Assembly (NCBI GenBank): GCA_043803765.1
Contig: JAZDJQ010000012.1
Coordinates: 109,194 to 173,193 of the forward strand
Source: Candidatus Iainarchaeum sp.
Lineage (GTDB): Archaea; Iainarchaeota; Iainarchaeia; Iainarchaeales; VGJJ01
Reading direction: 5' to 3'
Length of the DNA: 64,000 nt
The notes below the pieces were generated by a model. It was not told the DNA's origin and made no database searches. It was given only the letters and a program-made list of their open reading frames with translations. Position numbers and translations under genes: made by a program. Below, piece by piece: positions 3,079-63,775 of this stretch. Positions within the stretch are counted from its first letter, which is position 1; each line of letters begins with the position of its first letter.

Positions 3079-3255
3079 AAGTCTCTAAACGTTCTTGTAT
3101 TTTTTAATGTTCCGTCTTGCCGATGTAACACTCGCTGGTATTGGTGTGAAAAGTTGTATAGGGTATCTTCATCTTTTTAGTGTTGGTGCATTTCATAATT
3201 CATACGTGTTTACCTATCCTAAAAAGAAATAGGGGGCGTTGAACCCAGCACCTTA

Positions 3256-3327
3256 CGCCCACTGCGGGAATCGAACCCGCGCCTCCACCGTGACAGGGTG
3301 GAATCCTAACCGCTAGACGAAGTGGGC
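3256..3327 (-). tRNA. tRNA-Asp(GTC)
   Basis: GCCCACT/AGTGGGC acceptor stem, CCACC-CT GTC AC-GGTGG anticodon arm, GGTTCGATTCC T-loop. Confidence 0.95.
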
Positions 3328-3380
3328 ATCCGCAAACGTATTTCGCGTGAAAAAGCATTAAAAACACGCCGTCCAGCCCG

Positions 3381-16467: not shown

Positions 16468-16569
16468 ACTCTACGTAGACGCACTATCTTTTTTACACTA
16501 TCGATAACCCCAAAAAAATCGAATAACGATCGTATTCTCTAGCGATTCCCATGCAATAGAAAAATAAGG

Positions 16570-16589
16570 AGTCCCGCCTCCGGGACTTC
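16570..16589 (-). repeat. tRNA-Tyr 3'-end copy (att-like site, distal end of array)
   Basis: AGTCCCGCCTCCGGGACTTC. Confidence 0.8.
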
Positions 16590-16610
16590 ATCTCTAAAAA
16601 TACTCATTTT

Positions 16611-16769
16611 TCAAAATAAGGCATACACAAATGAGGAAACAGCTGCTGATTGTCCAATAAAAATAAGCAGTGCCACCAGCATAAGCAATACCACAATAGG
16701 CACTAACCACCATACTTTTCGCTTCCACAAAAACTGAAGTAGCCCATTTAAAACAGTTAGTCTGCCCAT
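16611..16769 (-). CDS. DUF5989 (SxtK-like) small membrane protein
   Basis: FLWKRKVWWLVPIVVLL...SSFVYALF. Confidence 0.85.
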   Translation of the reverse strand: MGRLTVLNGLLQFLWKRKVWWLVPIVVLLMLVALLIFIGQSAAVSSFVYALF

Positions 16770-16781
16770 AATGAAGATAGT

Positions 16782-17165
16782 ATGTCCTCCCATTTTAAAA
16801 ATCTAGGGATTTTGCTTGGATTTCTCCCCATTGGGATAATCATTTATGGATTTGTTTTTTCTTCCCCCTCTTTGGTTTTGCCATTCCTTTTGAGTGCCGT
16901 GGCAGTAAATATCCTGCTATTAGTTATTGCGCCGCGAATTTGGAAAAATCCTGCTTTATCCAAAATTAAAATGGGTGCGATGAGTGTTTTTAGTCTATTG
17001 AATAACATTATTGTTTCAGCGGTACTAGCAGTGGCATACGTTTTCAGCGTAGGCATCGTTTTTATTTTCTCCCGCATTATCGGAAAAAAATTCATGAATC
17101 TTTATCCAAAAAAAACGAGCTGGGTGAAAATTGAAAAAGCAAAAGAAGACTATTTGGAGATGTAG
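16782..17165 (+). CDS. SxtJ-like membrane protein
   Basis: hydrophobic, RIIGKKFM...TSWV tail, next to a carbamoyltransferase. Confidence 0.6.
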   Translation: MSSHFKNLGILLGFLPIGIIIYGFVFSSPSLVLPFLLSAVAVNILLLVIAPRIWKNPALSKIKMGAMSVFSLLNNIIVSAVLAVAYVFSVGIVFIFSRIIGKKFMNLYPKKTSWVKIEKAKEDYLEM

Positions 17166-17173
17166 GTGGCGCA

Positions 17174-18916
17174 ATGTACATACTTGGAGTTTCTGCATTT
17201 TATCATGATTCGGCTGCCTGCCTGATTAAAGACGGTGAGATTGTCGCCGCCGCTCAAGAAGAACGTTTCACGAGAAAAAAACACGATAACTCATTCCCAA
17301 AAAACGCAATTGCATATTGCCTCCGGCAGGCAGGCATTTCTCCCAAGGAGGTGAATAAAATTAGTTTTTATGAAAAACCTTATGTCAAATTTGAACGCCT
17401 TCTCTATCAATTTATTGAAACCTATCCAAAATCTTTCTCCACATTCATTGAAACCATCCCTATTTGGCTGAATGAACGGTTAAATGTACCCCAGCATTTT
17501 GAAAAAGAAGGTTTTCGTGCACCCATTCAATATGTGAGTCATCATCTTTCGCATGCAGCAGCCAGTTATTACACTTCCAAATTTGATAATGCGGCCATTC
17601 TCACTATGGATGGTGTAGGAGAATGGGCTACCACCACGATGGGTTTTGCAGAAGGAAATAATATCACACTCACCCATGAAATCCATTTTCCCCATTCGCT
17701 GGGATTGTTATATAGTGCCATTACTGCATATCTTGGTTTTTCAGTGAATAATTCCGAATACAAAGTCATGGGCTTAGCCCCTTATGGAAAACCCAAATAT
17801 AAGAGTGAATTTGACAAGCTCGTTCATGTGTATCCGGATGGCAGTTTCTCCCTCGATATGGATTATTTTGCCTTTACGTATGAAAAAAAAATGAATTCAA
17901 AAAAAATGGAGGAATTATTCAACCATCCCGCTCGAAAAAAAGAATCCGAAGTCACCCAATTCCACAAAGATGTGGCAGCCTCTCTCCAAACCAAAACTGA
18001 AGAAATCGTCATCAAGTTATGCAATGAATTATTTCATCAGACTAAAAAAGAAAATATTTGTTTGGGCGGGGGCGTGGCGCTAAATTCGGTTATTAATGGA
18101 AAAATTTTGACGCAAACGCCTTTCAAAAAAATATGCATCCAGCCCGCAGCAGGAGATGCCGGCAGCGCTATGGGCGCCGCGCTGCATGTATGGCACCATT
18201 ATTCTCCTCAGTCCCTGCGCCTTCCTTTCTCACACGCTTTCTGGGGACCGGGTTTCTCACAGGAAGAAGTAAAAAAATTTCTGGACCAGAAAAAAATAAA
18301 TTATTCCATGCTCAAAAATACACGGGAAATTGCTTCGCATACCGCTAAATTGATTCACGAAGGAAATATTGTGGGTTTTTTCCAAGGGAGAATGGAATGG
18401 GGCCCCCGCGCATTAGGGGCGCGAAGTATTTTGGCCAATCCTACAGACCCAAATATTAAAGATATATTGAACCAGAAAGTCAAGCACCGTGAACATTTTC
18501 GGCCGTTTGCACCGGTGATTCCTGTAGAGGATGCAAAAAATTGGTTTGATTGTGATTTGCCTCTCCCTGAGCCCGCTGATTACATGCTTATGGTGTACCC
18601 TGTCAAAAAATCCAAGCGCGAAAAAATTTTGGGAGTAGTCCACGTGGACGGCTCTGGAAGGTTACAAACCATTCGCAAAAACCAACACGCATTGTATTAT
18701 CAGACCATCCGCGAATTCGAAAAATTATCGGGGGTGCCGATTCTCATTAATACTTCTTTCAATATCCGTGGTGAACCCATTGTGTGCACTCCTGAGGATG
18801 CCTATCGCTGCATGATGGGAACAGGCATTGATTATTTGATGATTGAAAACTTCCTCGTGGCACGAAAAGACAACCTTCAAGATGCTTGGGATAGTGAAAA
18901 ACTAGCAAATGATTAA
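17174..18916 (+). CDS. NodU/CmcH family O-carbamoyltransferase
   Basis: YHDSAA, EERFTRKKH, HHLSHA, EYKVMGLAPYG, GPRALGARS, LINTSFN. Confidence 0.95.
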   Translation: MYILGVSAFYHDSAACLIKDGEIVAAAQEERFTRKKHDNSFPKNAIAYCLRQAGISPKEVNKISFYEKPYVKFERLLYQFIETYPKSFSTFIETIPIWLNERLNVPQHFEKEGFRAPIQYVSHHLSHAAASYYTSKFDNAAILTMDGVGEWATTTMGFAEGNNITLTHEIHFPHSLGLLYSAITAYLGFSVNNSEYKVMGLAPYGKPKYKSEFDKLVHVYPDGSFSLDMDYFAFTYEKKMNSKKMEELFNHPARKKESEVTQFHKDVAASLQTKTEEIVIKLCNELFHQTKKENICLGGGVALNSVINGKILTQTPFKKICIQPAAGDAGSAMGAALHVWHHYSPQSLRLPFSHAFWGPGFSQEEVKKFLDQKKINYSMLKNTREIASHTAKLIHEGNIVGFFQGRMEWGPRALGARSILANPTDPNIKDILNQKVKHREHFRPFAPVIPVEDAKNWFDCDLPLPEPADYMLMVYPVKKSKREKILGVVHVDGSGRLQTIRKNQHALYYQTIREFEKLSGVPILINTSFNIRGEPIVCTPEDAYRCMMGTGIDYLMIENFLVARKDNLQDAWDSEKLAND

Positions 18917-19012
18917 CTATCAAATACGGAGATTCCTTCTCTTGGAAAAAAAGTTGACAGATTAAAAATCCAAAAGCCACCCATTATAAAATTATAGATT
19001 TTTATAGGGTTT

Positions 19013-20113
19013 ATGCGCTCATCTGAGTATCCTACTCTTGTCATGGTAGTGCTTTTTTCATTTATTATTGGATTGTTTCTCGCCGAAGGACTGTTGATCG
19101 TTCTCAACATAGAACCTGCTCCCAATTTACTTTGCACATATATATCGGATGAAACACGCGGTCACGCATTATACCCAAATCTTTCCGGTCATTTTGTTTA
19201 TGAACCTGAAATCGACATGAACTTCACTATCAATAAATTAGGTATGCGCGGAAGTGAACCAGACGAAAAACTAAAAAAAATATTTTTGGCAGGAGATTCC
19301 GTTTCTTTCGGATACAGTGTGGATCAAAATGAATCGTTTGCCGCAAAAACAAATCAAGAAATAAAGAAATTCGGATATGAACTGCTCAACTTGGGAACCC
19401 CCGGTTATGGTTTGACACAATCACTTATTACCATTAAAAAAAATCTTGTGTTTAATAATCCCGAAATTGTAGTATTGGAAATAACTACTCCGAATGATTG
19501 GTCGGATGATTATACCTTCACCACTGTTGGACCTACTAACTGGGTGGATGAACAGCACTGTATGGTCAGCAAGCGCCCTGCTGGAGTCATTACCACAATC
19601 AAATCAATCGCTTACCGGAATTCAAGGCTGGCGCGGCTTATTAACAAAAACTTTCGCCAGGAAAATCTGATAGAATCCAACAATGTGATATCTGACAGCC
19701 TGTTGAAAGACCCAACCCAAATTGTGGTTCAGGCAAGACAGATACAACGCCAGCGTCTGAACGAATTTCGCGAGTTACAATCGCAATATCATTTCAAATC
19801 ACTCATCTTGCTTATTCCAAGTCGTATTGAAACCGATGAGGTTTTTTTTAATCAGACCATCCAGAATACTCGCCCGGCCAATGAATACAATCGTCGAGAA
19901 CAGATTGAATTTTATCTTGGGATTTGCAAGGAGATGGGTTTTGAATGCATTGACATGGGAAAGGCATTTGAGGAAGAATACCAATCCGAATCCGCATCAA
20001 CCGAATATTATAACCATAAAATTGACCATCATCCCAACAAAAAAGGAAACCTGTTCATTGCCGAAACACTGATACCGGAAATTGTCCAAAAAATTCAAGA
20101 AGATACAAATTAG
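19013..20113 (+). CDS. membrane-anchored SGNH/GDSL hydrolase
   Basis: N-terminal TM, GDSVSFG, NLGTPGY, ND, DHHPNKKG. Confidence 0.85.
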   Translation: MRSSEYPTLVMVVLFSFIIGLFLAEGLLIVLNIEPAPNLLCTYISDETRGHALYPNLSGHFVYEPEIDMNFTINKLGMRGSEPDEKLKKIFLAGDSVSFGYSVDQNESFAAKTNQEIKKFGYELLNLGTPGYGLTQSLITIKKNLVFNNPEIVVLEITTPNDWSDDYTFTTVGPTNWVDEQHCMVSKRPAGVITTIKSIAYRNSRLARLINKNFRQENLIESNNVISDSLLKDPTQIVVQARQIQRQRLNEFRELQSQYHFKSLILLIPSRIETDEVFFNQTIQNTRPANEYNRREQIEFYLGICKEMGFECIDMGKAFEEEYQSESASTEYYNHKIDHHPNKKGNLFIAETLIPEIVQKIQEDTN

Positions 20114-20167
20114 AATGGTTCATTTCTCAATAGCGTCATGCGTCATTCGTCAATAGCATAAAAGAGA

Positions 20168-20206
20168 TAGTCCCGCCTCCCGGACTCGCACACGGGTATC
20201 TTCCGG
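20168..20206 (-). repeat. tRNA-Tyr 3'-half copy (att-like site)
   Basis: TAGTCCCGCCTCCCGGACTCGCACACGGGTATCTTCCGG, matches tRNA 26606-26643. Confidence 0.9.
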
Positions 20207-20310
20207 CTTTATTCAAAGGTTCGGCTGTGGCCTCACAATTAGTGAAGTTAGTGCACATAGTGAATAATGGGATAGGCAAGCTCTTTATATGAAAATAATG
20301 CAATAGGGCT

Positions 20311-20937
20311 ATGTTTGAAAAATATCGCCCATTTTTACTGGGAGTTTCTCATTCTAAGGAAATGCTGTGGGATGTTTTTCAAGAGATTGACAAGGTAAAG
20401 CCAAAATCAATTGGAATAGAAGAATCAAAATGGTCTGTTGAGAACTGGAGACAAATTGGGTTGAACCCCCACCACGCTGGATTTTGGCGAGTATTGATTA
20501 GAGAGTGTAGAGCGCGAGGTATTGAAATAACGTACCTTACTCCTGATAGAGTTGCCCAACAAAATATCCGAGAACAACTTCGGTTGAAAAAACTGGGAAT
20601 TACCGCACAAAAGGTTCTTGAAAATCCACAAGGGCACACAGAAGGAAAGGAACTGTTACGACATATGCGCGATAAAACTACGGATGTCGTTGAAATGACT
20701 GCTCGGAAAAGACGTCCACAGATGCTTGTTTTGGGCTTATTTCATTCTGCTATTTTACGAAAAAACTTGGGCATTCCAAAAGCTCGATTTAGTGTCCATG
20801 TAGTCCCTTCGCCACGTGCGATAAGAGAGATGGGTGTTCGCGTTCCAAGAAGAAAATTAGAAGCGAGAAAAAAACAATTAATTGAAGGAATGCTTTTTCA
20901 TGTCAAAGGATACCGAAGAGCCGCTCGAAAAAGATAG
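20311..20937 (+). CDS. hypothetical protein, weak TraB/GumN-like N-terminus
   Basis: LLGVSH...KPKSIGIE, LGLFH; TTTATA 27 nt upstream. Confidence 0.6.
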   Translation: MFEKYRPFLLGVSHSKEMLWDVFQEIDKVKPKSIGIEESKWSVENWRQIGLNPHHAGFWRVLIRECRARGIEITYLTPDRVAQQNIREQLRLKKLGITAQKVLENPQGHTEGKELLRHMRDKTTDVVEMTARKRRPQMLVLGLFHSAILRKNLGIPKARFSVHVVPSPRAIREMGVRVPRRKLEARKKQLIEGMLFHVKGYRRAARKR

Positions 20938-20949
20938 AATTATTCTCAA

Positions 20950-21022
20950 TCCGGTCGTCGGGACGAAAGCGAAGCTTGAGTGTGTGAATGGATTAGTCCC
21001 GCCTCCCGGACTCGCAACCGGG
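20950..21022 (-). repeat. att-like site, near-identical to tRNA-Tyr 3' end plus trailer
   Basis: differs from 26562-26633 by 3 substitutions and 1 indel. Confidence 0.95.
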
Positions 21023-21029
21023 CTTTTAC

Positions 21030-21353
21030 TCACTTTCTCACCGGCGGGTTCGATTCGGCAATGAGGTCTATGCTGGCGAGTACTATCATCTTTTCCAAAA
21101 ACTTCTCATGCTCTTTCAGAATGACGTCTCCATTTGGAAGTTTTGTGATTTCGGCCATCGCACGGTCTCGACATGGCTTACTTTCCCAATCTGCAATAGC
21201 ATACAAAATGGATGGATTCTCCAAACTGCGGAACAGTTTTGTTCCCCTTGCACCCGGGTAAGTTTGAATAATGTCACTCCCCCACTGCCACTGCCGGATA
21301 AAGTCGGTTTCCTTGCCAGGAATGGGATGGTGCTCAAAAATAACGCGATACAT
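21030..21353 (-). CDS. ABM (antibiotic biosynthesis monooxygenase) domain protein
   Basis: PGKETDF...YPGARGTKLFRSLENP...ADWES. Confidence 0.8.
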   Translation of the reverse strand: MYRVIFEHHPIPGKETDFIRQWQWGSDIIQTYPGARGTKLFRSLENPSILYAIADWESKPCRDRAMAEITKLPNGDVILKEHEKFLEKMIVLASIDLIAESNPPVRK

Positions 21354-21369
21354 AGGTTCCTTCGCTTAA

Positions 21370-21594
21370 CTAAGCCATTTTCATAAACTCGTCTCGCTCC
21401 ATCTTGAGTTCGAACTTAATGATTTTGTTTAACAATCCAGGCGGAATGGGCTTGTTCGAATGAAAGGCAACTGTTAGAATTCGCCCATCCAAATGTTCAA
21501 ATGTTTTGTGTGACCCTTTTTGTCGCACTTCCAAAAAACCAAGTTTGTGCAGAATTTTGATTAAGTCTTGGGGATACAGAACGGATAATTTCAT
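21370..21594 (-). CDS. hicA: HicA toxin
   Basis: KLGFLEVRQKGSH...GLLNKIIK. Confidence 0.9.
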   Translation of the reverse strand: MKLSVLYPQDLIKILHKLGFLEVRQKGSHKTFEHLDGRILTVAFHSNKPIPPGLLNKIIKFELKMERDEFMKMA

Positions 21595-21608
21595 TTGAAA
21601 TCACCTAT

Positions 21609-21830
21609 TTACACAACCACTTTAACCATTCCAATAACCGATTCAACATCCACTTTGACTTTCTTTTTGACAAGCGTTTCTAAGTGCAAGGAAATTGCTT
21701 CCTTCATATTTTCTAACAATTCTTCAACAGTATCCGCATAGGAATAGCAACCGGGCAAAGCAGGGACTGAACCATAGTATTGTCCAGTTTCTGCATCTTT
21801 TTCGATAACCACATCGTAAGGTCTTGTCAT
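21609..21830 (-). CDS. hicB: HicB antitoxin (short form)
   Basis: VPALPGCYSYADTVEELLENMKEAI. Confidence 0.9.
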   Translation of the reverse strand: MTRPYDVVIEKDAETGQYYGSVPALPGCYSYADTVEELLENMKEAISLHLETLVKKKVKVDVESVIGMVKVVV

Positions 21831-21903
21831 AATACTACCCATACTACTATGAGAATAAAACCTTGCTTCCAGTAAACCGCCAAAAAGTGCTATTCATCCA
21901 TTC

Positions 21904-21960
21904 GGCGGGACGATTCATAAGCCTCAGGTGGTGATGGATTAGTCCCGCCTCCCGGGACTT
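21904..21960 (-). repeat. att-like site with inverted left arm
   Basis: GGCGGGACGATTCAT...ATGGATTAGTCCCGCCTCCCGGGACTT. Confidence 0.9.
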
Positions 21961-22085
21961 CAATGGAAAATATTCAGTATTATTCTTTTCCTCGCCTAAA
22001 ATATGTGCAGTGTACATCGTCCGCCGAATTTGACTGATGATCCCATCCATATATCTCTTTTATACCCAGAAACAATTGATTGGCC

Positions 22086-22835
22086 ATGGATTGGGTATTA
22101 TTGTTCATTGTTTTTCTAGTGGGACTCGGAACAACTTTCATCGGCGCGATTAGTGGGGGAGGGGGGCTTCTCATGCGACCCATTCTAATTTTTTTAGGTG
22201 TGCCCACCATCACTCTGATCGGCACTCCACGCGTGGCAGGAATATTGGGCGATTGGCCTGGATTGTTTTTGTTTCACAAGCATAAAAAAATCGATTGGAA
22301 TCTGGCCATATTCCTGACCATCCCTAACTTGATTGGAACCATCATCGCGGGGATGGTAGTCATAAGCTTGCCGACAGAGGCATTGGAATTATTTTTAGGA
22401 ATACTGCTCATCGTCTCGGGAGTGGTATTTTCGTTCAATAAAAATTTCGGATTGCTTGAACAAAAATCTCCCTTTTCCAAAATTGGACAAAACATCCTCG
22501 GATTTATCGGGACGAATGTCATATCCTTCGTTGGAACCATTACCGGTGGACTTGGCACACTCTACATCTCGTTCTACACGTTGATTTATGGTAAAAATTA
22601 CATCAACGCGGCTGGGTTGTGGCGCATCTCTTCCTATTTCGGAGGATTGGGCAGTTCGGTGGTATTTATCTGGAGTGGAATTGTCGACTGGCAACTCTGT
22701 CTGGTGCTGAGTGCAGGATTTTTGATCGGCTCCTATTTTGGGACGATTTACGGATTAAAAAAAGGGGTCGCGCGGGTCCGCTACCTTGTGATAGCACTCG
22801 CATTTGGCGCTGGAATAAAACTAATCCTATTTTAG
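22086..22835 (+). CDS. TauE/SafE (TSUP) transporter
   Basis: GAISGGGGLL, about 8 TM segments, GSYFG. Confidence 0.9.
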   Translation: MDWVLLFIVFLVGLGTTFIGAISGGGGLLMRPILIFLGVPTITLIGTPRVAGILGDWPGLFLFHKHKKIDWNLAIFLTIPNLIGTIIAGMVVISLPTEALELFLGILLIVSGVVFSFNKNFGLLEQKSPFSKIGQNILGFIGTNVISFVGTITGGLGTLYISFYTLIYGKNYINAAGLWRISSYFGGLGSSVVFIWSGIVDWQLCLVLSAGFLIGSYFGTIYGLKKGVARVRYLVIALAFGAGIKLILF

Positions 22836-22870
22836 GGAAAACGCCCAACCATAGATCAACGTATATTCAT

Positions 22871-22945
22871 CTCCCAAACCAGCACGCGAGGATTCTTTGT
22901 TCGAGGCCTCGCCTGAGGGCTCGCTGACGTTAGTGTAGTTAGTGC
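22871..22945 (-). repeat. degenerate att-like site plus shared cassette-end motif
   Basis: CTCCCaaACcaGCAC, then TTTGTTCGAGGCCTCGCCTGAGGGCTCG...TTAGTGTAGTTAGTGC (cf. 20208-20254). Confidence 0.6.
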
Positions 22946-22966
22946 TGTTCAACGAATGCATCTGTC

Positions 22967-23320
22967 TTACCTTTTCTTTATCTTGAACCGTTTATCATAA
23001 TCGGGGTGCGACTCAATAACTAACACGAAGCAAATGACTTCGATTTCTTGGCGGCGAATGGTAAAAAGCATTCGCCAGTATTGAGCGAGTCGAATTTTGA
23101 ATAGATTATCTACATCCAATTCTTTTGGAATATCTTTTTTGGAGACTACTTCTCCGCGCAGAGGGTCTTCTTTCAACCATTCAATCTTTTCATTAATCGA
23201 ACGCCAGAGGGTTTGATTTTCTGAACTCTTGATTCCTTTAGATTCTTCTTCAGTTACAAGTTTCTTCAGGCGTTCGTACTCTTCGAGAGCCTGACCAGTA
23301 AGGCGGACGCGTGCTTTCAT
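22967..23320 (-). CDS. RelE-like toxin
   Basis: LKEDPLRG...NLFKIRLAQYWRMLFTI...HPDYDKRF; ATGA overlap with upstream gene. Confidence 0.7.
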   Translation of the reverse strand: MKARVRLTGQALEEYERLKKLVTEEESKGIKSSENQTLWRSINEKIEWLKEDPLRGEVVSKKDIPKELDVDNLFKIRLAQYWRMLFTIRRQEIEVICFVLVIESHPDYDKRFKIKKR

Positions 23321-23583
23321 ACTTCCACGCTCGCATCCATCAATCGCTTCATTTTGTCTTTCGGAACATACACCCAAATAATGCCTTTGGGAGTGTCTAA
23401 AATCATAAAGCGCTTCTCCAAGTAATCTAAAATAACATCAAGAGTTGGGCGCATAATACGATTACCCGCTCGCTTTAGCAATTCATAACGGGAAAGAGGC
23501 TCTTTCGCCTCTTTGAGAATCTCTTCGACTAAAAGAACGGTTTTGAGAGTAGGGTAGTGTAGGACCTGCATAAACGTCACCAA
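23317..23583 (-). CDS. putative antitoxin / small winged-helix protein
   Basis: PTLKTVLLVEE...TLDVILDYLE; coupled to the RelE-like gene; ATG at 23571 is an alternative start. Confidence 0.65.
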   Translation of the reverse strand: MVTFMQVLHYPTLKTVLLVEEILKEAKEPLSRYELLKRAGNRIMRPTLDVILDYLEKRFMILDTPKGIIWVYVPKDKMKRLMDASVEV

Positions 23584-23644
23584 CTACACTACGATAGACA
23601 TATAACGCATATAAAGATATACCCTTAAACTCGCATTTCCAGTA

Positions 23645-24325
23645 TTACTTTATTGCCTTTAGCATTTCCACTGCACGTTTAGGGTCTCCCCTTCCTACTG
23701 GGAAATAACACGGGACCACATTGGTTTGATGATTGCCCACTTTTAATGGATAAGTTGCTAGTTTGCGTGATTGAACGAATTTATCATAATAGTCCTGTAA
23801 CCTGATTGTTTCTTGTGTGAGAAATGTAAATGGAATCAGCCCAAATGTGACAATGGTTTTGGGTTGAACTATCTCAATCTCCCTTCTCAAAATAGGTAGA
23901 AATAACTTAACTTTCTGTGCATCTGGCAATGTGGCGTCAGCTCCTGTCCATTTTACAATGTTAGTAAAGTAAAACGATTTTGAATCCAAGAAAGACCTAA
24001 CTTTTTCAGTAAATTCCAATGACCAATTAGGTTCTTTCTCAATTTGTTTCATCAGTTCGTCGTCAAATAATTCTGCACGATTAAAAATTCGCCAGACGGG
24101 CTTGGTTCCAATAAAAGGAAAACGAGGACCTTTCCATAAAGGACTTGAGCTAATATTATGGTGCGTTGGATTAATGAAAACAAACATGTAATTCGGACTC
24201 TCAACATGGCCGTTTCCTACAATGGGCATCAACCGATTTTCTGGAAAAAACGGTGTATGTGTGTCATTCACTATTTTCCATAAATCGTCTAACGAATGGC
24301 AATCTTCAGGACTCATAGGATACAA
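23645..24325 (-). CDS. uracil-DNA glycosylase superfamily protein (atypical)
   Basis: FVFINP, YFTNIVK, REIEIVQPKTIVTFG, CYFP. Confidence 0.75.
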   Translation of the reverse strand: MYPMSPEDCHSLDDLWKIVNDTHTPFFPENRLMPIVGNGHVESPNYMFVFINPTHHNISSSPLWKGPRFPFIGTKPVWRIFNRAELFDDELMKQIEKEPNWSLEFTEKVRSFLDSKSFYFTNIVKWTGADATLPDAQKVKLFLPILRREIEIVQPKTIVTFGLIPFTFLTQETIRLQDYYDKFVQSRKLATYPLKVGNHQTNVVPCYFPVGRGDPKRAVEMLKAIK

Positions 24326-24344
24326 ACCGTTCTTTGATATTTAA

Positions 24345-24410
24345 TCCGTCCGGCGGGACAAGTCTGAAGTGTGAAAGTTTGAGGTAATAGTCCCGCCTCC
24401 CGGTCCTGCA
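24345..24410 (-). repeat. att-like site with inverted left arm
   Basis: TCCGTCCGGCGGGACAA...TAGTCCCGCCTCCCGGTCCTGCA. Confidence 0.9.
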
Positions 24411-24419
24411 GTTATTTCT

Positions 24420-25394
24420 CTATTCAATGGATTCACCCAGCTTTTTGACAATAATCTCTTTATTTTCCTCAATAATTTGATGAATTTCTTTTCCACGATT
24501 CTCAAGGCACAAGTAAATGAATTTGGAGAACTTTGCATACTCTTTGGAAAGCTGAACCCGTTCAAGCAATGTAATGTAGCTCGCGCGATTGGAAAGGTTC
24601 ACAATCGCACGTGGAAAACCTTTTTTTTGGAGCATTCGATTGAGGATTTCCCTTCCTGTGCGTCCATTTCCATCCTCAAACGGGTGAATAAACTCAAAGC
24701 GGGCGTGAAATTCGGATGCTAATTCAAGCGGGTGCACTCTTTCGCTATTTTTCTCCATCCAATCTAACAATTTTTTTATTCCGCTTTCGACTTTATCAGC
24801 TGGAACTGGCCTTACTTTTGATGCAGTAATGAACATCGGCCCTGTTCGATACTTTCCAGGATGTTTCTCCGGAAATCCATCTAAAATAGCCGCATTGATT
24901 TTTTTGATGTTACGTTCATTGATTTCATTAATTTTCTTGGAAACCATTGCCGCTTTTTTCATATTTTCAATTTCTCTTATCTCATCTACTTTCTTTCCGG
25001 CAACGGAAGCCCCTTTCGTCAAAACTAACAGTGCTTCCTGCAAACTGAGCGAGTTTCCTTCCACAGAAGCACTTCCCTGTGCGTAACGCACGAATTCGTC
25101 TTCTTTAAATGATTCAAATCCGCTGGGAAAAAAATCCTCTAGGATAGAATAGTCTACTTTCAGTCGTTCCAAAGATAGAATTTCAGGAAAAGAGAGGATG
25201 TGCGACCGAAACTGTTCATGTGTTTGCTTAGCCCGTTCCAGTGCCTTCTTTTGAATGAACGTTTCAAGTCCTTCTTTCATTCTTCCGAAAGCCAGCCCCT
25301 TGTTTCCAAGAAGGACACTTATCCTCTTCTTTTCTACTCGGTCTTCTAAATAGAAGTAAGCCGTCCCCTTGATTGTGCGCTTTGAAATGAACAT
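24420..25394 (-). CDS. Fic family protein with N-terminal beta-rich domain
   Basis: HPFEDGNGRTGR; SASVEG inhibitory helix; KRTIKGTAYFYL N-terminus. Confidence 0.92.
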   Translation of the reverse strand: MFISKRTIKGTAYFYLEDRVEKKRISVLLGNKGLAFGRMKEGLETFIQKKALERAKQTHEQFRSHILSFPEILSLERLKVDYSILEDFFPSGFESFKEDEFVRYAQGSASVEGNSLSLQEALLVLTKGASVAGKKVDEIREIENMKKAAMVSKKINEINERNIKKINAAILDGFPEKHPGKYRTGPMFITASKVRPVPADKVESGIKKLLDWMEKNSERVHPLELASEFHARFEFIHPFEDGNGRTGREILNRMLQKKGFPRAIVNLSNRASYITLLERVQLSKEYAKFSKFIYLCLENRGKEIHQIIEENKEIIVKKLGESIE

Positions 25395-25459
25395 AGAACA
25401 AGTTAACACCAAAAAGGTTAAAAAATGGTATTTTTAGTAAATATGGTGTTAACCCACAA

Positions 25460-25609
25460 TTAGTTTTCCAAACCTAATTTGACGCCCTCTCTGATAATAC
25501 CATAAACGTGCCAAATATCACAGACTCCACAGGACGGAAAATAATCCGGGCAACGTTTTCCCCAGTATTTTCGAATATGTTTATTCAATTCAAGCAGAAC
25601 TTTCTTCAT
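25460..25609 (-). CDS. small Cys-containing protein
   Basis: MKKVLLEL...KRCPDYFPSCGVC; GGGAG SD. Confidence 0.45.
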   Translation of the reverse strand: MKKVLLELNKHIRKYWGKRCPDYFPSCGVCDIWHVYGIIREGVKLGLEN

Positions 25610-25904
25610 CTTCCTTAACTCCCTCGTCGAAGCACTTGTTGCATTCCCAATACTCAACCTTTCTCACCTTCCCAGTCCACCTGACTACATTGTGGCTTTT
25701 TCCACCCATTCGAAAAGTTCCAACTTTCACATGCTCACCCGTTCCCTCAATGGGAAATTTTAGTTTACTAAAGAAATGTCCTTTATCATAATGACCTGAT
25801 TTTGTTAGTCGAACCCACATCCACTTTCCACAAATCAAACATTTACGACGAATTTTTCGGACAAATTTAGCATTCTCGCGCGCATGAAAATGTTTTTCAG
25901 ACAC
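25590..25904 (-). CDS. small Zn-ribbon-like protein
   Basis: CLIC...WECNKC. Confidence 0.55.
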   Translation of the reverse strand: MSEKHFHARENAKFVRKIRRKCLICGKWMWVRLTKSGHYDKGHFFSKLKFPIEGTGEHVKVGTFRMGGKSHNVVRWTGKVRKVEYWECNKCFDEGVKEDEESSA

Positions 25905-25988
25905 CTTTTAAAAAGACCCCATTCAAAATAAAATCATATGCAAATTAATACACTATAGACGAATACCAGTTCGACAGTTAGACGGTTA

Positions 25989-26045
25989 TTATACTTCCAC
26001 GCTTCCATGGATCAGCTTCTTCATCTTATCGTTCGGAGCATACAA
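25989..26045 (-). pseudogene. 3' remnant of a paralogue of the 23317-23583 gene
   Basis: LYAPNDKMKKLIHGSVEV* vs VYVPKDKMKRLMDASVEV*, 11/18 identical. Confidence 0.75.
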
Positions 26046-26100
26046 CCTCCTGATACTCGCAACCGGGAAATTATATCCGAAGCCTCGTCTGCGGACTCGG
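26046..26100 (-). repeat. degenerate att-like site plus shared cassette-end motif
   Basis: CCTCCtgatACTCGCAACCGGG then TATATCCGAAGCCTCGTCTGCGGACTCGG. Confidence 0.7.
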
Positions 26101-26107
26101 AGGGCAT

Positions 26108-26530
26108 TTAATTATCCATCTTAAGCGCTTTAAGTTCAGTTTCAAGTTTTTTTACAAGGTCATTTAAGTCAGTATATTGGATGATTTTGTGTAAATTAGG
26201 AATACCCAAAACCATAGTTGATTTTGATAAATCAACAGTGTCTTTGGCAATGAGAATGAGTGGAATATCATTTTCGTATCCCATTTGAAGTTCCATTCCA
26301 ACACCATGAGAAGGACTACTTACTTCGGCGATAAATAAGTCGCATTTTGTAATGGTGTCAATTGTTCGCGTGTAAAACTGTTTTGGAGTTTCTTTTGAAT
26401 CCCAAAAATCGGGATAAGTACCTATAACTTTGTCATAGTATTTGCTACAAAGTTTAGCTATTCTTTTGTAAATAGGGAGATAATCCTGCCCAAAAAGAAA
26501 GATTGGTCCGAACACGTAAACGCTCGTCAT
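26108..26530 (-). CDS. nucleoside 2-deoxyribosyltransferase-like (Rcl/DNPH1-type) protein
   Basis: VYVFGPI, CDLFIAEVSSPSHGVGMEL. Confidence 0.85.
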   Translation of the reverse strand: MTSVYVFGPIFLFGQDYLPIYKRIAKLCSKYYDKVIGTYPDFWDSKETPKQFYTRTIDTITKCDLFIAEVSSPSHGVGMELQMGYENDIPLILIAKDTVDLSKSTMVLGIPNLHKIIQYTDLNDLVKKLETELKALKMDN

Positions 26531-26608
26531 AGTACTGCCACCTCAACCATGTATTTAACTGTCCGGTCGTCGGGACGAAAGCGAAGCTTGAGTCGGTGAA
26601 TGGATTAG

Positions 26609-26681
26609 TCCCGCCTCCCGGACTTGCACCGGGGATCTTCCGGTCTACAGCCGGACGCATTAGCTACTATGCTAAGGCGGG
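26609..26681 (-). tRNA. tRNA-Tyr(GTA), intronless
   Basis: CCCGCCT/AGGCGGG-A acceptor, TCCGG-CT GTA GA-CCGGA anticodon arm. Confidence 0.93.
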
Positions 26682-26850: not shown

Positions 26851-27465
26851 ATGCCTGTTGAAAAAATCACCATTTGGTATGCCCCATCTAAGTGTATTGG
26901 TGCAGGGGAGTGTGTGAAGAACAATCCTGCCGTATTCGGGTTTGATGACCGTACAAAAAAGGCGATGCTGATTGGTGGAAAAATAAATGATAAAAAGGAA
27001 TTCACTCGTGAAATTACGGGCGATTCTACACATATTGGGTATGCGATTACGGCTGCTGCTTCTTGTCCGGTAAATGCGTTCATCGTAAAAGATTCTGCCG
27101 GAATAGTTCGTGTGGGAAATAAAATAGAAATTGCTGAAGCAAAAGAATTGCATCCGGTTTATGATGATGCAAAGGATTTTGTGTTAGACCCGAAAGGTTA
27201 TTTTCTCATTCGCGTGAATGCACAAAAAAAAGAAATCGAAGTTGGTTTTTGTAATACTAAAAACATTGTTGTGTTGAAAGTAATAGGAAAAAAGCCTATT
27301 GATATTTACACAGCAGTTGCTCGTAAAGAACCGTGTTTGCGTCCTGAGCATTATGCGTATCTTGGAAGAGAGTTGGAGAAAGCATATCATTGTATTCAAA
27401 CAGGATTAGTGTATGTTCAGGATGGTGAATTGCACGAAATGAAGTTAGTAGGAAAAAAAGAATAA
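26851..27465 (+). CDS. ferredoxin-DUF4346 fusion protein
   Basis: CIGAGEC...SCP N-terminus; DPKGYFLI...HYAYLGRELEKA C-terminus. Confidence 0.8.
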   Translation: MPVEKITIWYAPSKCIGAGECVKNNPAVFGFDDRTKKAMLIGGKINDKKEFTREITGDSTHIGYAITAAASCPVNAFIVKDSAGIVRVGNKIEIAEAKELHPVYDDAKDFVLDPKGYFLIRVNAQKKEIEVGFCNTKNIVVLKVIGKKPIDIYTAVARKEPCLRPEHYAYLGRELEKAYHCIQTGLVYVQDGELHEMKLVGKKE

Positions 27466-31613: not shown

Positions 31614-31703
31614 ATTCGATATAATCCAAATAGGAGAATATAAAACAGGGGGCGCATCCCACGACATTTCCATACGAATGGAATACATGGAAACGGTTGC
31701 GAG

Positions 31704-31776
31704 TGGGCTCGCTCGGATTTGAACCGAGGTCGACAGCTCCCAAAGCTGCCATCCTACCAGGCTAGACGACGAGCCC
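31704..31776 (-). tRNA. tRNA-Pro(TGG)
   Basis: GGGCTCG/CGAGCCC acceptor, GCAGC-TT TGG GA-GCTGT arm, GGTTCAAATCC. Confidence 0.95.
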
Positions 31777-37485: not shown

Positions 37486-37557
37486 AGCCCTCGGTGGGAT
37501 TCGAACCCACGGCCTGCGGTTTACAAAACCGCTGCTCTACCACTGAGCCACGAGGGC
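37486..37557 (-). tRNA. tRNA-Thr(TGT)
   Basis: GCCCTCG/CGAGGGC acceptor, GCGGT-TT TGT AA-ACCGC arm. Confidence 0.95.
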
Positions 37558-58398: not shown

Positions 58399-59544
58399 TC
58401 ATGTCTTCAACAGCCAGTCGAATATTTCTTTCTCTCCGCATAGCAGAGTCGTTTTGGCCTTCTTGAATTCAGTGGAGAATTCCTTTAGCGATTCGTTTTC
58501 ACGAGCAGGGGGGGTTTTCTCCCAACAAACATTTACGGCGCGAACAGCTTCTCCTTCTTTCATCACTAAATCCACTTCATGCTTCCCCTTCCAGTAATAC
58601 AAATCATGGTTTCGGCGCTTACATTCAATAGCGACTGCATTCTCCGCCAACCGACCCGTATCAGGAGTAAACGACTTGGTGGCATACTGCTGCATCCCCA
58701 AATCATAGGCATACACTTTTCGCGGCCGCGTAAGAGATTGTTTCATGGAATAGGCGAAAAAAGGAACCTGAAAAACCAAAAAGGATGTTTCCAATGCATC
58801 TAAATACTGCCGAATCGTGTCATAGCTCAACCCCGTAAATGAACGGAGCTGTTTCAAACTGGTTTCCTTCCCCGTATTAGTCAAAAGATAATAGGCAAAA
58901 TTCCGCAATCCTGTTATGTCACGAATATTGTATCGCGACGCAATATCTTTAACCAGTGCCAGCTCAAAATAGGATTGAAACAGTTTTTGTTTTTCATCCG
59001 GATGCAACGTTACTTCAGGATAACCCCCCGCGCGCAAATAATCATCTAACTTTCTGCCCGTGACGCGTTGATACTCCTTAAATGATAAAGGCAAAACCTG
59101 AAATCCAATCCCTCTCCCACCCAAAGATGTAGCAAATTCACCACTCAACAATTTGGCGCTCGAACCGGTCACAATGACTTGACACTGGCGCGTGTCCACC
59201 GCTCGACGAACCCATTTCTCCCAACCATCAATCAATTGAATTTCATCCAAAACAATCGTATCCTTCGCACTCAAACCAAAAACAACATCATCCAGCAAGG
59301 ACACATTCAATTCACCCACCAACGAAGGATCTTCCAGATTCACATATCGGCGAGTGGTTTTGGACGGGAGTTGATCCAGAATTCTGCGCGCCAGCGTGGA
59401 TTTTCCAGCTTGCCGAGGGCCATAGAGGTAAACCACATGCCGGTTGCTCACATATCGTAAAACATCCGACTCAATATCACGAGCAAACGTGGAACCCTTC
59501 AATTTCCACTTTTCCAGCAACTTATCCAATTGGGCAGAATCCAT
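58399..59544 (-). CDS. AAA ATPase with DUF4143 domain
   Basis: GPRQAGKS, LDEIQ, TGSS, GGYP, KVYAYDLG, ENAV, EVD. Confidence 0.92.
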   Translation of the reverse strand: MDSAQLDKLLEKWKLKGSTFARDIESDVLRYVSNRHVVYLYGPRQAGKSTLARRILDQLPSKTTRRYVNLEDPSLVGELNVSLLDDVVFGLSAKDTIVLDEIQLIDGWEKWVRRAVDTRQCQVIVTGSSAKLLSGEFATSLGGRGIGFQVLPLSFKEYQRVTGRKLDDYLRAGGYPEVTLHPDEKQKLFQSYFELALVKDIASRYNIRDITGLRNFAYYLLTNTGKETSLKQLRSFTGLSYDTIRQYLDALETSFLVFQVPFFAYSMKQSLTRPRKVYAYDLGMQQYATKSFTPDTGRLAENAVAIECKRRNHDLYYWKGKHEVDLVMKEGEAVRAVNVCWEKTPPARENESLKEFSTEFKKAKTTLLCGEKEIFDWLLKT

Positions 59545-61646: not shown

Positions 61647-62624
61647 TCAATTGAGTCTCCGATGCTTTATCTGACTAAGGAATTCTTCATAGCAAAATTT
61701 AACAAAAAACGATTCGTTTCCCGATTCAACCGATCGAATAAGTTCTTTGAAGTAAGCCGCGGTATTCTTTGAAATATTCAGGATAGGATAGCCCGCATCT
61801 TGGAGAACTTTATTGAACAACAATCGGCACATGCGCTTGTTCCCATCCTTAAATGGGTGAATGAGATATAATTTCAAATGCACAAGCCCGGCCAGTTCTA
61901 ACGGATGAATATTCTTATTTTTATCCAACCATACAAAAAAAGTATCCAGCTCCTTCTCCACTTTGGCAGGAGCAGGCGGACGATAATCAATCTCCTCGCT
62001 TTTCATTGTCAATGGATTAAATCTGGCGATTATGCGTTGGTCGTCACGCAGCTGCCCAGGACTTTTGTCTTCGAAAGTTGTCATTACGATTCCATGTAAG
62101 CGCAGAATATCTTTCTTGTTCCATTGAATACTGGGTAAATAGTTGAATCCTGTAATCATCGAACTCGAAATAATAACTTTACTATCCATGGTTAGTTTCT
62201 TTTTTCGCTTATCAATAATTTCAAACGCGGTCTCGACATCGGCATAATCGACGTCCACTCCTTCCGTACGAAGAGTGGTAAAAACAAAATGAACGACTTG
62301 ATTCTTATCATATTCTTCTCTTTGTTTCTTGCTTAGTTTTTGAAAACGAGAAATAAAGTTATCCTTTACTTGCTCAACTCCGGCCAGTTCTTTTCTTGAA
62401 AGAATATAAAATTGATATTGATCAAGAATTTTATCGTATAGAGAAGTAAGAGTTTGTTTTACTTTCTCTTGCAGCTCTTTTTCTTTTTTCTTAAATTCAG
62501 TTTCAGAAGGCTTCGTTCTCCCAAGATAGAGACGAACCTTACGAACTTTTTTCCCGATACGATAACTTTTTCCCAAATAATAGTATTTGTTTCCTTTCAC
62601 CGTTCTTTCGATTATTTTACCCAT
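61647..62624 (-). CDS. Fic family protein with N-terminal beta-rich domain
   Basis: HPFKDGNKRMCR; ERTVKGNKYYYL. Confidence 0.92.
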   Translation of the reverse strand: MGKIIERTVKGNKYYYLGKSYRIGKKVRKVRLYLGRTKPSETEFKKKEKELQEKVKQTLTSLYDKILDQYQFYILSRKELAGVEQVKDNFISRFQKLSKKQREEYDKNQVVHFVFTTLRTEGVDVDYADVETAFEIIDKRKKKLTMDSKVIISSSMITGFNYLPSIQWNKKDILRLHGIVMTTFEDKSPGQLRDDQRIIARFNPLTMKSEEIDYRPPAPAKVEKELDTFFVWLDKNKNIHPLELAGLVHLKLYLIHPFKDGNKRMCRLLFNKVLQDAGYPILNISKNTAAYFKELIRSVESGNESFFVKFCYEEFLSQIKHRRLN

Positions 62625-62631
62625 AACAATA

Positions 62632-62704
62632 TGACTACATTTAAGTATATAAAATGTAGTCACAACTTGGAGACTACGTCATTTGAAACAAGTTGTAGTC
62701 ACAA
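62632..62704 (-). promoter_or_regulatory. TATA box flanked by inverted-repeat operator
   Basis: TGACTACATTT-9-AAATGTAGTCA; second TGTAGTCACAA at 62694. Confidence 0.7.
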
Positions 62705-62824
62705 TTGCCCCAAGCGTGGGATGTTCTATCTTGTTCATTAGTAATGCACACTATTGTATAAGGTTGAATTTGTAGATAGTATTAGCGCATAAAGTCTAAC
62801 ATCGTAAAACAAATTGTTATCCGC

Positions 62825-63775
62825 CTAGTTTTCTTTTTTCATTTGAGCATAGTTTTCTTTTAGCTGTTCGACCAGAAAGTGAGTAAACGGGCCATATTCA
62901 GTACGATGCCCCTTTTCTTGGGTTTCAAAATAGGGATCACGTTTCAATACGGGAATATTGGTAAAGGGAAATCCATTGAACTGCAAAATATAGTTCATGA
63001 TTAATCGTGCCATTCGTCCGTTTCCATCCGCAAAGGGGTGAATAGTAGTGAACATGCAATGGGTCATGGCTGCGAGTTCAACAGGGTGTATTAAATCATT
63101 ATTTTTCTGATAATCTTCCATCATTTCTTTCATCATTTTGGGAACTTGAGAATGGGGAGGAAAATGAAACGAGCTCACACGAAGGAAAACGTTAACCGGA
63201 CGCCAGATTCCTTTGTATTGGTCGTAATCCGGAATTTTGTTTAGCAGAGTCGTATGCCATTCCAAAATGAGTTTTTCGTCTAACTCTCGTTTTTGAGTCA
63301 AGCTTTCTTCAAATTGAACGAGACACCGCTCCATGTTCAATACTTCCAAGCGTTCACGTTGGCTCCCCAACCGCGCCCCCAACCGAAGTATTCGCTGGGT
63401 TTCATCTAACGAGAGAGTGCTTCCCTCAATCGCATTCGTGTTAGTTATAAATTTATCTCGTTCGCGCTCAACCCATTGCTTCTTTTGTTTAGCACTTAAT
63501 TGATCGAGAAACAATTGTGTTTCTTGCTTAATGGCTTCCAGCTTGACTGCAGTCTTGACATCAATAAAACGAGTTTTGGATTTTAATAATTGTTCTCGAT
63601 AAAAAGATTTAACTTTTTGGTCGAGCTTTTTTCTAAACGACGCTAATTTTGATTTAGCCGGATTAATAGCCCCTAAATAGAGATACACCTTTCGAACTTT
63701 TTTCCCGATGCGGATACTCCGTTCCAGATAGTAGTATGGTTTCCCTTTCACGGTTCGCTGAATGACCTTTCCCAT
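62825..63775 (-). CDS. Fic family protein with N-terminal beta-rich domain
   Basis: HPFADGNGRMAR; TNAIEG; QRTVKGKPYYYL. Confidence 0.92.
   Translation of the reverse strand: MGKVIQRTVKGKPYYYLERSIRIGKKVRKVYLYLGAINPAKSKLASFRKKLDQKVKSFYREQLLKSKTRFIDVKTAVKLEAIKQETQLFLDQLSAKQKKQWVERERDKFITNTNAIEGSTLSLDETQRILRLGARLGSQRERLEVLNMERCLVQFEESLTQKRELDEKLILEWHTTLLNKIPDYDQYKGIWRPVNVFLRVSSFHFPPHSQVPKMMKEMMEDYQKNNDLIHPVELAAMTHCMFTTIHPFADGNGRMARLIMNYILQFNGFPFTNIPVLKRDPYFETQEKGHRTEYGPFTHFLVEQLKENYAQMKKEN

Follow-up and report, generated by a model that had tools for sequence, protein, structure and literature searches.

Tandem re-use of one attachment site and integrated elements without an integrase are both known in archaea (PMC8371274, PMC6563490, each drawn on in part). 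As far as the cited portions of the accounts go, cis-mobilizable elements (CIMEs) keep attL and attR, have no integration genes and, when an integrative element arrives, are stacked with it by accretion (PMC5704250), and 15 ssrA islands of Dehalococcoides are without an integration module and were suggested to be cis-mobilizable (PMC3146451). The program Islander, in the cited part of its description, requires an integrase in each island and placed 4 of 3919 islands in tandems of at least three (PMC4383910), so arrays like the one described here are systematically missed under such a requirement. Our subject is an array of small units at the tRNA-Tyr gene of a Candidatus Iainarchaeum sp. genome, located in a stretch of 64,000 nucleotides (nt) that we call the window (C12:109194-173193 of the assembly GCA_043803765.1; contig JAZDJQ010000012.1). 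The window genome (G000) comprises 1,022,810 bases in 19 contigs and is 93.5% complete.

We regard the locus as probably a tandem accretion array at tRNA-Tyr, built by tyrosine-integrase recombination, with integrase-less cassettes that are moved by the integrase of rare autonomous relatives. The last ~20 bp of the tRNA gene would serve as the attachment (att) core for a family of tyrosine-integrase elements. Each integration would rebuild the tRNA and mark the distal end of the insert with a core copy; inserts would thereby stack with the newest adjoining the tRNA. The seven units of the window would then be att-flanked cassettes of the cis-mobilizable type that encode no integrase; they may be excised, moved between species and re-inserted by the integrase of a rare autonomous relative, supplied in trans or by tandem travel with that relative.

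Repeat copies at tRNA-Tyr and across the genus

The 12-mer AGTCCCGCCTCC occurs six times in the window, always on the plus strand (positions 16570, 20169, 20995, 21941, 24389 and 26607). Since tRNA-Tyr lies on the minus strand (26608-26681), the 12-mer is the complement of the tRNA 3' end. Its chance expectation is 0 (no match in any of 100 shuffles), every repeat copy falls between long open reading frames (ORFs), and no copy was found outside the locus in the 19 contigs of G000. An assembly artefact was ruled out as the origin of the array: it sits inside a 173-kb contig, and comparable arrays are present in other assemblies, in a 446-kb contig and in a one-contig genome. An earlier reading made from the sequence alone (the sequence-only reading) had reported six exact, co-oriented and strictly intergenic copies, all of which are borne out, and the degenerate copies that it placed at about 22871 and 26046 are true junction remnants. 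Rather than being scattered over the genome, the 12-mer is confined to this locus in G000. Among the 46 tRNAs of G000, only tRNA-Tyr has a 3' 14-mer that is present at least three times. A relaxed search of G000 with the 20-mer (up to 4 mismatches) added one isolated fragment on contig C9 and one weak match on C14. The C9 fragment (C9:5752-5773) is a 22-nt piece of the tRNA-Tyr 3' end with 1 mismatch, and no tRNA, integrase or array-type gene lies near it.

The repeat copies delimit seven units of 0.5-3.6 kb with 1-3 genes each, of which four run with the direction of the tRNA and three opposite to it; recognisable att copies are found at both ends of five units, and two junctions are degenerate. 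The gene content that the sequence-only reading had given for each unit agrees with Pfam. Beyond the terminal core lie ROK and saccharopine-dehydrogenase genes, a flank that is syntenic in three relatives (G016, G003 and G001; relatives are given as G handles and loci as L handles, L023 being the locus of G016). The window flank itself resembles the native flank weakly, and the genes past it are syntenic.

The family set consisted of 18 genomes, 17 of the genus (G000 included) and one of a sister genus, and the 204-amino-acid (aa) gene upstream of tRNA-Tyr served as the anchor for the locus in relatives. The anchor gene was matched in 16 of 61 genomes searched (G000 included) and in 12 of the 16 other genomes of the genus, with 49-62% aa identity of its protein within the family; tRNA-Tyr is near-identical in nine relatives and adjoins this same gene each time. 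Eight of the 17 genus genomes have at least two exact copies of the 12-mer (6, 8, 6, 4, 3, 2, 2 and 2), eight have one copy and one has none (79% complete), as does the sister-genus genome; within any one genome, all copies point the same way. If one mismatch is tolerated, 10 copies are counted over 11 kb of G002 plus one 6.5 kb further (11 in all), and nine over two contigs of G004. The 28 core-to-core intervals of ten array stretches measure 595-8129 bp (median ~1.6 kb), 27 of them at most 3613 bp, and the 8129-bp interval is the only one of the 28 to contain an integrase. An unoccupied site is present in at least three genomes (G013, G010 and G012), where the tRNA is followed directly by the native flank. 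The native flank motif of these empty sites reappears after the last core in G016 and G001, as serial integration at the tRNA predicts. Gene order at the locus is not fixed: the tRNA-Tyr array varies across the genus, which supports the serial insertion at the tRNA that the sequence-only reading had proposed. Cargo in the relatives includes HicAB, a MazF-like toxin, NUDIX, SurE, cytidylyltransferase, Ldh-like and AAA_14/DUF4143 ATPase proteins, and HicAB-type cassettes also lie within the arrays of G002, G004 and G007.

Wider collections were scanned with the core-plus-arm patterns. The genome contig collection returned 22 stretches, four of them genuine, on three contigs labelled 'uncultured archaeon'; two of these contigs belong to the genomes with G handles, and the third agrees with a contig of G001 in its length and in the positions of its copies. 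The remaining 18 were rejected as chance matches in high-GC bacteria. The metagenome contigs returned three short contigs. Among viral contigs there was no match to the junction pattern, none to the predicted junction of the G016 element described below, and no relative of the G016 integrase.

The extent of the core was read from an ungapped alignment of 34 non-tRNA copies from G000 and its relatives (among these 34 rows, one is in fact a tRNA-Tyr, that of G015, which contains an intron and passed the identity filter). Identity to the tRNA is at most ~60% upstream and rises sharply to 79-100% across the last 18 positions, seven of which (AAGTCCG) lie outside those used to find the copies; this sharp step indicates a core of ~20 nt, AAGTCCGGGAGGCGGGACTA. 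In tRNA-Tyr the core runs from the end of the T-loop through the 3' strand of the T-stem and the 3' acceptor strand, and it holds an imperfect inverted repeat, AGTCC-N8-GGACT, a kind of inverted repeat that is the usual core shape of tyrosine recombinases. Of 41 copies (tRNAs included), 19 have an inverted core (GTCCCG[AC]CG) 29-33 nt downstream, compared with 95 of 20,000 random windows, and 10 have the direct repeat CACTAAC..CACTAA 58-95 nt upstream, compared with 353 of 20,000; this direct repeat is followed by a diverged tRNA-like stretch. Both arm features are common to different cassettes, some junction arms (45-80 nt) are at least 90% identical to each other, and many of the junction single strands fold as a long imperfect hairpin with bulges. 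That the types of the 31-nt spacer are inversions of one another was ruled out by inspection.

In two relatives the tRNA-Tyr gene itself appears to be interrupted: its 5' and 3' parts are ~200 nt apart in G015 (C1:399938-400148, L058) and G008 (C9:21289-21485, L066), which implies an intron of roughly 125-135 nt. Neither ARAGORN nor Rfam (at the gathering threshold) made a call at these two split genes.

Proposed exchange of units, integrases and competing explanations

Two sets of observations bear on movement. Unit 3 of the window is 88% identical in nt to a part of the G016 array (L023 9443-10951) over 1511 bp, its proteins being 93-99% identical in aa, and the match begins 3 nt before the core in both genomes. 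Its neighbours are the Fic and TauE units in the window, and the 8.1-kb element and the native flank in G016; the core flank genes of the two genomes share 65-72% nt and 49-75% aa identity. Other shared segments begin or end 0-28 nt from the core, twice between G002 and G004a (84% and 77%) and once between G002 and G015 (83%), so that the breakpoints of shared segments fall at the repeats, as the sequence-only reading would have it. Secondly, two metagenome contigs match G016: L055, with 99.96% identity over 2560 bp, has the tRNA joined directly to the UDG-like cassette, and L056, with 100% identity, contains the end of the 8.1-kb element. The difference between them falls exactly at the shared 21-nt core, which is good though not conclusive evidence for gain and loss of the integrase-bearing element at the core, both contigs being short and assembled.

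This element of G016 occupies 8.1 kb between the tRNA and the next cassette. Its tyrosine integrase (PF00589, E 1.8e-19) begins within ~65 nt of the tRNA, and at the far junction only the 20-nt core is common with the tRNA. In G001 an integrase 61% identical to that of G016 takes the same position; the element there runs on into a second contig and bears in its far arm the CACTAACTACACTAA motif that is also present on cassettes. A cognate integrase is thus present in the genus. The integrase frame is open back to an ATG within tRNA-Tyr at both L023:1275-2327 and L070:1486-2538 (350 aa each), which could be chance or could mean that the integrated state lends the gene a start and a promoter. 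A split integrase of the SSV type was considered and rejected, for the G016 frame is intact after the core and a TAG stands two codons upstream of the far-junction core in that frame.

The sequence-only reading had seen no integrase at the window locus, and this holds. No recombinase is among the Pfam assignments of the window units, which contain no remnants of an integrase or of the genes of the G016 element. A tblastn search with 18 integrases of the genus against the window array and the array stretches of ten relatives (E<=1) gave only a trivial tRNA-derived match, which arises because two integrase frames stay open back into tRNA sequence. The genome G000 has only three PF00589 genes. 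One is a XerA equivalog (272.6 bits, cut-off 220), and the other two encode integrases of ~430-450 aa, 31-39% identical to that of G016, one of them beside tRNA-Met. The recombinase acting in trans that the sequence-only reading had supposed is therefore plausible insofar as two relatives carry a tyrosine-integrase element at the exact site; that small units move as units by site-specific recombination, and that this integrase is the enzyme responsible, is what we infer.

The tRNA-Met locus of G000 (C14:7237-33591) has two degenerate copies of the tRNA 3' end, 17.5 and 26 kb downstream, an adjoining 429-aa integrase and three further genes related to the tRNA-Tyr element of G016. These are ordinary large elements in tandem, one of 17.5 kb that carries the integrase and one of 8.8 kb. 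On the same contig, the 3'-end 14-mer of tRNA-Arg(ccg) also occurs at C14:42519.

Several observations weigh against the accretion of mobile cassettes. The tRNA-Tyr-type integrase was not found in G000 (93.5% complete). The far arm of the G016 element is without the arm motifs of the cassettes, and the 31-nt spacer comes in about three types that show no consistent pairing with either neighbouring cassette. The only case of presence and absence seen concerns the integrase-bearing element, on short assembled contigs, and no small cassette. Of the eight window junctions, two are degenerate, and at least the units concerned are thus now fixed in place; core copies were located by an 11-mer, so decayed copies are under-counted. 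Some mosaic breakpoints lie off the core, at the 3' end of the 88-aa gene described below and at the inverted core. A HicB-type cassette on contig C5 of G000 (C5:28385-29010) lies directly downstream of tRNA-Ser(cga) and is 82% identical in nt to array cassettes of G002 and G004; its homology begins inside the inverted-core motif, with the end of the contig 0.9 kb further on. In the seven of the 18 family genomes that match, tRNA-Ser(cga) has a single copy and no array. The arrays must be shaped in part by general recombination or by recombination at the inverted core as well.

An elaboration of the accretion reading, which we put forward tentatively and hold to be rather doubtful, takes the tRNA-Tyr locus as an integron-like store in the genus, in which cassettes of 0.6-3.6 kb with a structured site of ~130 nt are traded by way of a rare integrase, with an 88-aa protein as accessory or directionality factor. 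The putative ~130-nt site would consist of an upstream arm with the CACTAAC repeat, the 20-bp tRNA core, a 31-nt spacer and the inverted core. The gene of the 88-aa protein is found in the arrays of 7 of the 17 genus genomes (78-98% aa identity) with varied partners. The protein has no match in Pfam, NCBIfam or PHROGs. Its model, predicted from seven sequences with a mean predicted local distance difference test (pLDDT) score of 74.9, is a three-helix bundle with a beta-hairpin wing, and a fold search with this model returned only generic winged-helix regulators (best E 5e-3). There are 299 homologues at E<=0.001, with Candidatus Diapherotrites, Micrarchaeota, Woesearchaeota and Nanohalarchaeota as the named sources, and it is on these labels that we base the term DPANN-type for the host. 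An inverted arm motif (CACCAACTACACTAC) at the start of the 88-aa gene in five genomes suggests that the protein may bind its own upstream region and the cassette arms.

Among the rival explanations, fixed debris comes first, and we think it unlikely. Successive full-size, integrase-bearing islands would have lost most of their DNA, the integrase included, to leave an array that is now immobile. Integrase loss after integration is, in the cited part of the source, the usual account of integrase-less archaeal elements (PMC8371274). The lack of a cognate integrase in G000, the large elements at its tRNA-Met and the two degenerate junctions of the window, one a deletion scar into a gene, all fit such decay, but the units of 11 array stretches hold no integrase fragment and 27 of the 28 intervals are small. 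The 1.5-kb cassette shared by two species has the same ends, different neighbours and 88% nt identity against ~70% for core genes, and independent decay would not produce identical ends. Moreover, the cassette arms are common to cassettes, unlike the integrase-side arm of the G016 element.

Less likely still is homologous recombination by the general system of the host, for which the att copies with their ~100-nt arms would be portable homology and no site-specific recombinase would be needed. A first insertion at a naive tRNA would have only the tRNA sequence as homology, the conservation steps up sharply at an 18-21-nt core shaped like a tyrosine-recombinase site, and the integrase element shares only 20-21 nt with its target and is nevertheless precisely present or absent. 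These points outweigh, in our judgement, the arms of 45-80 nt that are at least 90% identical between some junctions, the several breakpoints in arms or within genes off the core, and the lack of an integrase in most array-bearing genomes.

It is highly improbable that a host recombinase such as XerA moves the cassettes, in the way that bacterial elements exploit Xer at dif. G000 has the equivalog, and the best PF00589 match in four of five relatives searched is a Xer-like frame of 294-342 aa, but the site is a tRNA 3' end and not a chromosome dimer-resolution site, and in two relatives this core has a dedicated integrase beside it. A true integron with IntI, attI and attC can practically be dismissed, and with it the integron-like label of the sequence-only reading: small cassettes in an array, an imperfect bulged palindrome at the junctions and toxin-antitoxin cassettes as in chromosomal integrons are offset by a best NCBIfam integrase_gron score of 213.8 bits (cut-off 265) on the protein that passes as XerA, by tRNA-derived repeats without a GTTRRRY core on inspection, and by genes that face both ways.

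Units, junctions and other features of the window

The coordinates of the units and junctions, from the conserved chromosomal neighbour and the tRNA outward, are collected in the table.

Table. Features of the tRNA-Tyr array and its junctions (window positions; att, attachment site; wHTH, winged helix-turn-helix)
Feature	Position	Strand	Remark
Fer4/PterinBD protein, 204 aa, conserved chromosomal neighbour upstream of tRNA	26851..27465	+	Pfam
tRNA-Tyr(GTA), intact, 74 nt, putative attachment target, att core at 3' end	26608..26681	-	ARAGORN
att core copy 0 (AAGTCCGGGAGGCGGGACTA), within tRNA	26606..26625	-	
Arm downstream of core 0: 29-nt spacer and inverted core (GTCCCGACGACCGGAC)	26561..26605	-	91% identical to arm 20950-20993
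Unit 1: NDT-like gene 26108-26530	26069..26560	-	Pfam Nuc_deoxyrib_tr, E 2.9e-5, below curated cut-off
Degenerate junction: upstream arm and core cut at GGAGG, joined to 88-aa gene remnant	26040..26105	-	
Unit 2: wHTH gene remnant, 104-aa ORF 25590-25904, Fic 24420-25412	24408..26039	-	Pfam Fic, E 5e-20
att core (AGGACCGGGAGGCGGGACTA, 2 mismatches), inverted core at 24348-24359	24388..24407	-	
Unit 3: UDG-like 23645-24325, 88-aa winged-helix gene 23317-23583, 136-aa ORF 22967-23377	22890..24387	-	Pfam UDG
Degenerate junction: upstream arm with CACTAACTACACTAA motif (22930-22944), GCGAG repeats; core cut to GGGAGA	22860..22950	-	
Unit 4: TauE/SafE-family permease 22080-22835	21960..22859	+	Pfam TauE, E 7e-29
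att core (AGTCCCGGGAGGCGGGACTA), inverted core at 21900-21911	21940..21959	-	
Unit 5: HicB 21609-21842, HicA 21370-21594, ABM-domain protein 21030-21353	21014..21939	-	Pfam
att core (GAGTCCGGGAGGCGGGACTA), inverted core at 20950-20964	20994..21013	-	
Unit 6: 208-aa hypothetical protein 20311-20937; upstream-arm motif TTAGTGAAGTTAGTG at 20239-20253	20188..20993	+	
att core (GAGTCCGGGAGGCGGGACTA)	20168..20187	-	
Unit 7: 127-aa ORF 16782-17165, carbamoyltransferase 17174-18916, GDSL/SGNH-like 19013-20113	16589..20167	+	Pfam Carbam_trans_N, Carbam_trans_C
Terminal att core (AAGTCCCGGAGGCGGGACTC), then chromosomal flank, no cassette arm	16569..16588	-	

At 74 nt, the tRNA is of the archaeal form. 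At the junction between units 1 and 2, a deletion scar, the cut core runs directly into the final 11 codons of an 88-aa gene; the gene remnant there (25991-26047) shares 77% identity with 23319-23375. In unit 3, the 136-aa ORF that follows the 88-aa gene may encode a toxin of the RelE/ParE type, an assignment unsupported by any library. For the protein of unit 6 there was no match in Pfam, NCBIfam or PHROGs, and the NCBIfam GDSL matches of the GDSL-like protein in unit 7 are weak.

Near the end of the window, tblastn detected a homologue of the AAA_14/DUF4143-type ATPase (58426-59475) and two Fic-like paralogues (61689-63766) that are 26-28% identical to the Fic protein of the array. Three more tRNAs (Asp, Pro and Thr) lie on the minus strand of the window at 3255-3328, 31703-31776 and 37486-37557, with no additional copies of their 3' 14-mers in G000. 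On contigs C1 and C18 of G000, the final 14 bases of four tRNAs (Lys-ctt, Lys-ttt, Leu-cag and Pro-cgg) recur only 69-211 nt downstream, and these four short-range copies could be excision scars or very short inserts.

Comparison with described systems

The sequence-only reading knew of no description of this architecture, and to that extent it has to be corrected: integrase-less, att-flanked accretion is known, as the cited parts of three accounts make clear (PMC5704250, PMC3146451, bioRxiv 10.1101/2020.12.28.424599). The new points are the very small size of the units, their number, the structured att flanks and the host, an archaeon of the DPANN type. A literature search, which left supplements aside, found no account of such an architecture in DPANN or Diapherotrites. 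In DPANN archaea, whose genomes are of ~1 Mb, few ways of exchanging genes are recognised. In the present case a variable stock of small accessory cassettes at one tRNA takes up 1-2% of the genome; its cargo includes toxin-antitoxin pairs, Fic, enzymes of nucleotide repair or salvage, a permease and a carbamoyltransferase cluster, and different species have the same cassettes. Should the units move as such, the array would be a compact platform for gene flux that relies on the recombinase of a few cells, and it would represent a functional convergence on integrons built from an ordinary tRNA attachment site.

The following comparisons apply to the systems as the cited portions of the papers present them. 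The CIMEs, of the ICESt1 type of Streptococcus thermophilus (PMC5704250), have the same att flanks, no integration genes and the same stacking at the 3' end of a target gene, and the likeness extends to the two relatives in which units stand in tandem with an integrase-bearing element, the arrangement proposed to permit mobilisation. The array differs from CIMEs in its 1-Mb archaeal host genome and in its far smaller (median ~1.6 kb) and more numerous units (up to 11 copies). It shows no genes for conjugation, the cassettes have common structured arms, and nothing marks them as decay products of larger elements. The ssrA islands of Dehalococcoides (PMC3146451) are likewise in tandem downstream of a single-copy tRNA-like gene in a small host genome, and they show a 20-bp direct repeat of the gene 3' end with adjacent extra conserved bases, as here; however, they are multi-kb islands with a serine recombinase and reductive dehalogenase cargo, whereas the present case has units of 0.6-3.6 kb and, on our reading, a tyrosine recombinase.

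In the tycheposon islands of Prochlorococcus (bioRxiv 10.1101/2020.12.28.424599), the same tRNA is used repeatedly, newer islands push older ones inward and leave partial tRNAs between them, and integrase-less remnants occur in a streamlined host genome, all as here. Tycheposons carry their own integrase and replication modules, and their integrase-less pieces are described in that part of the account as degenerated remnants, not recurrent small cassettes. Elements that exploit Xer (IMEX) have att sites that mimic dif and are recombined by Xer; the core of the present array lies in a tRNA gene. Integrons, including those in Archaea (bioRxiv 10.1101/2022.02.06.479319), are alike in their stockpile of small cassettes, their toxin-antitoxin genes and their imperfect-palindrome sites, while the tRNA-Tyr array has no IntI and, on inspection, no attC consensus, uses sites made from a tRNA end, holds genes in mixed orientation and, in G000, has an insertion point without a resident integrase.

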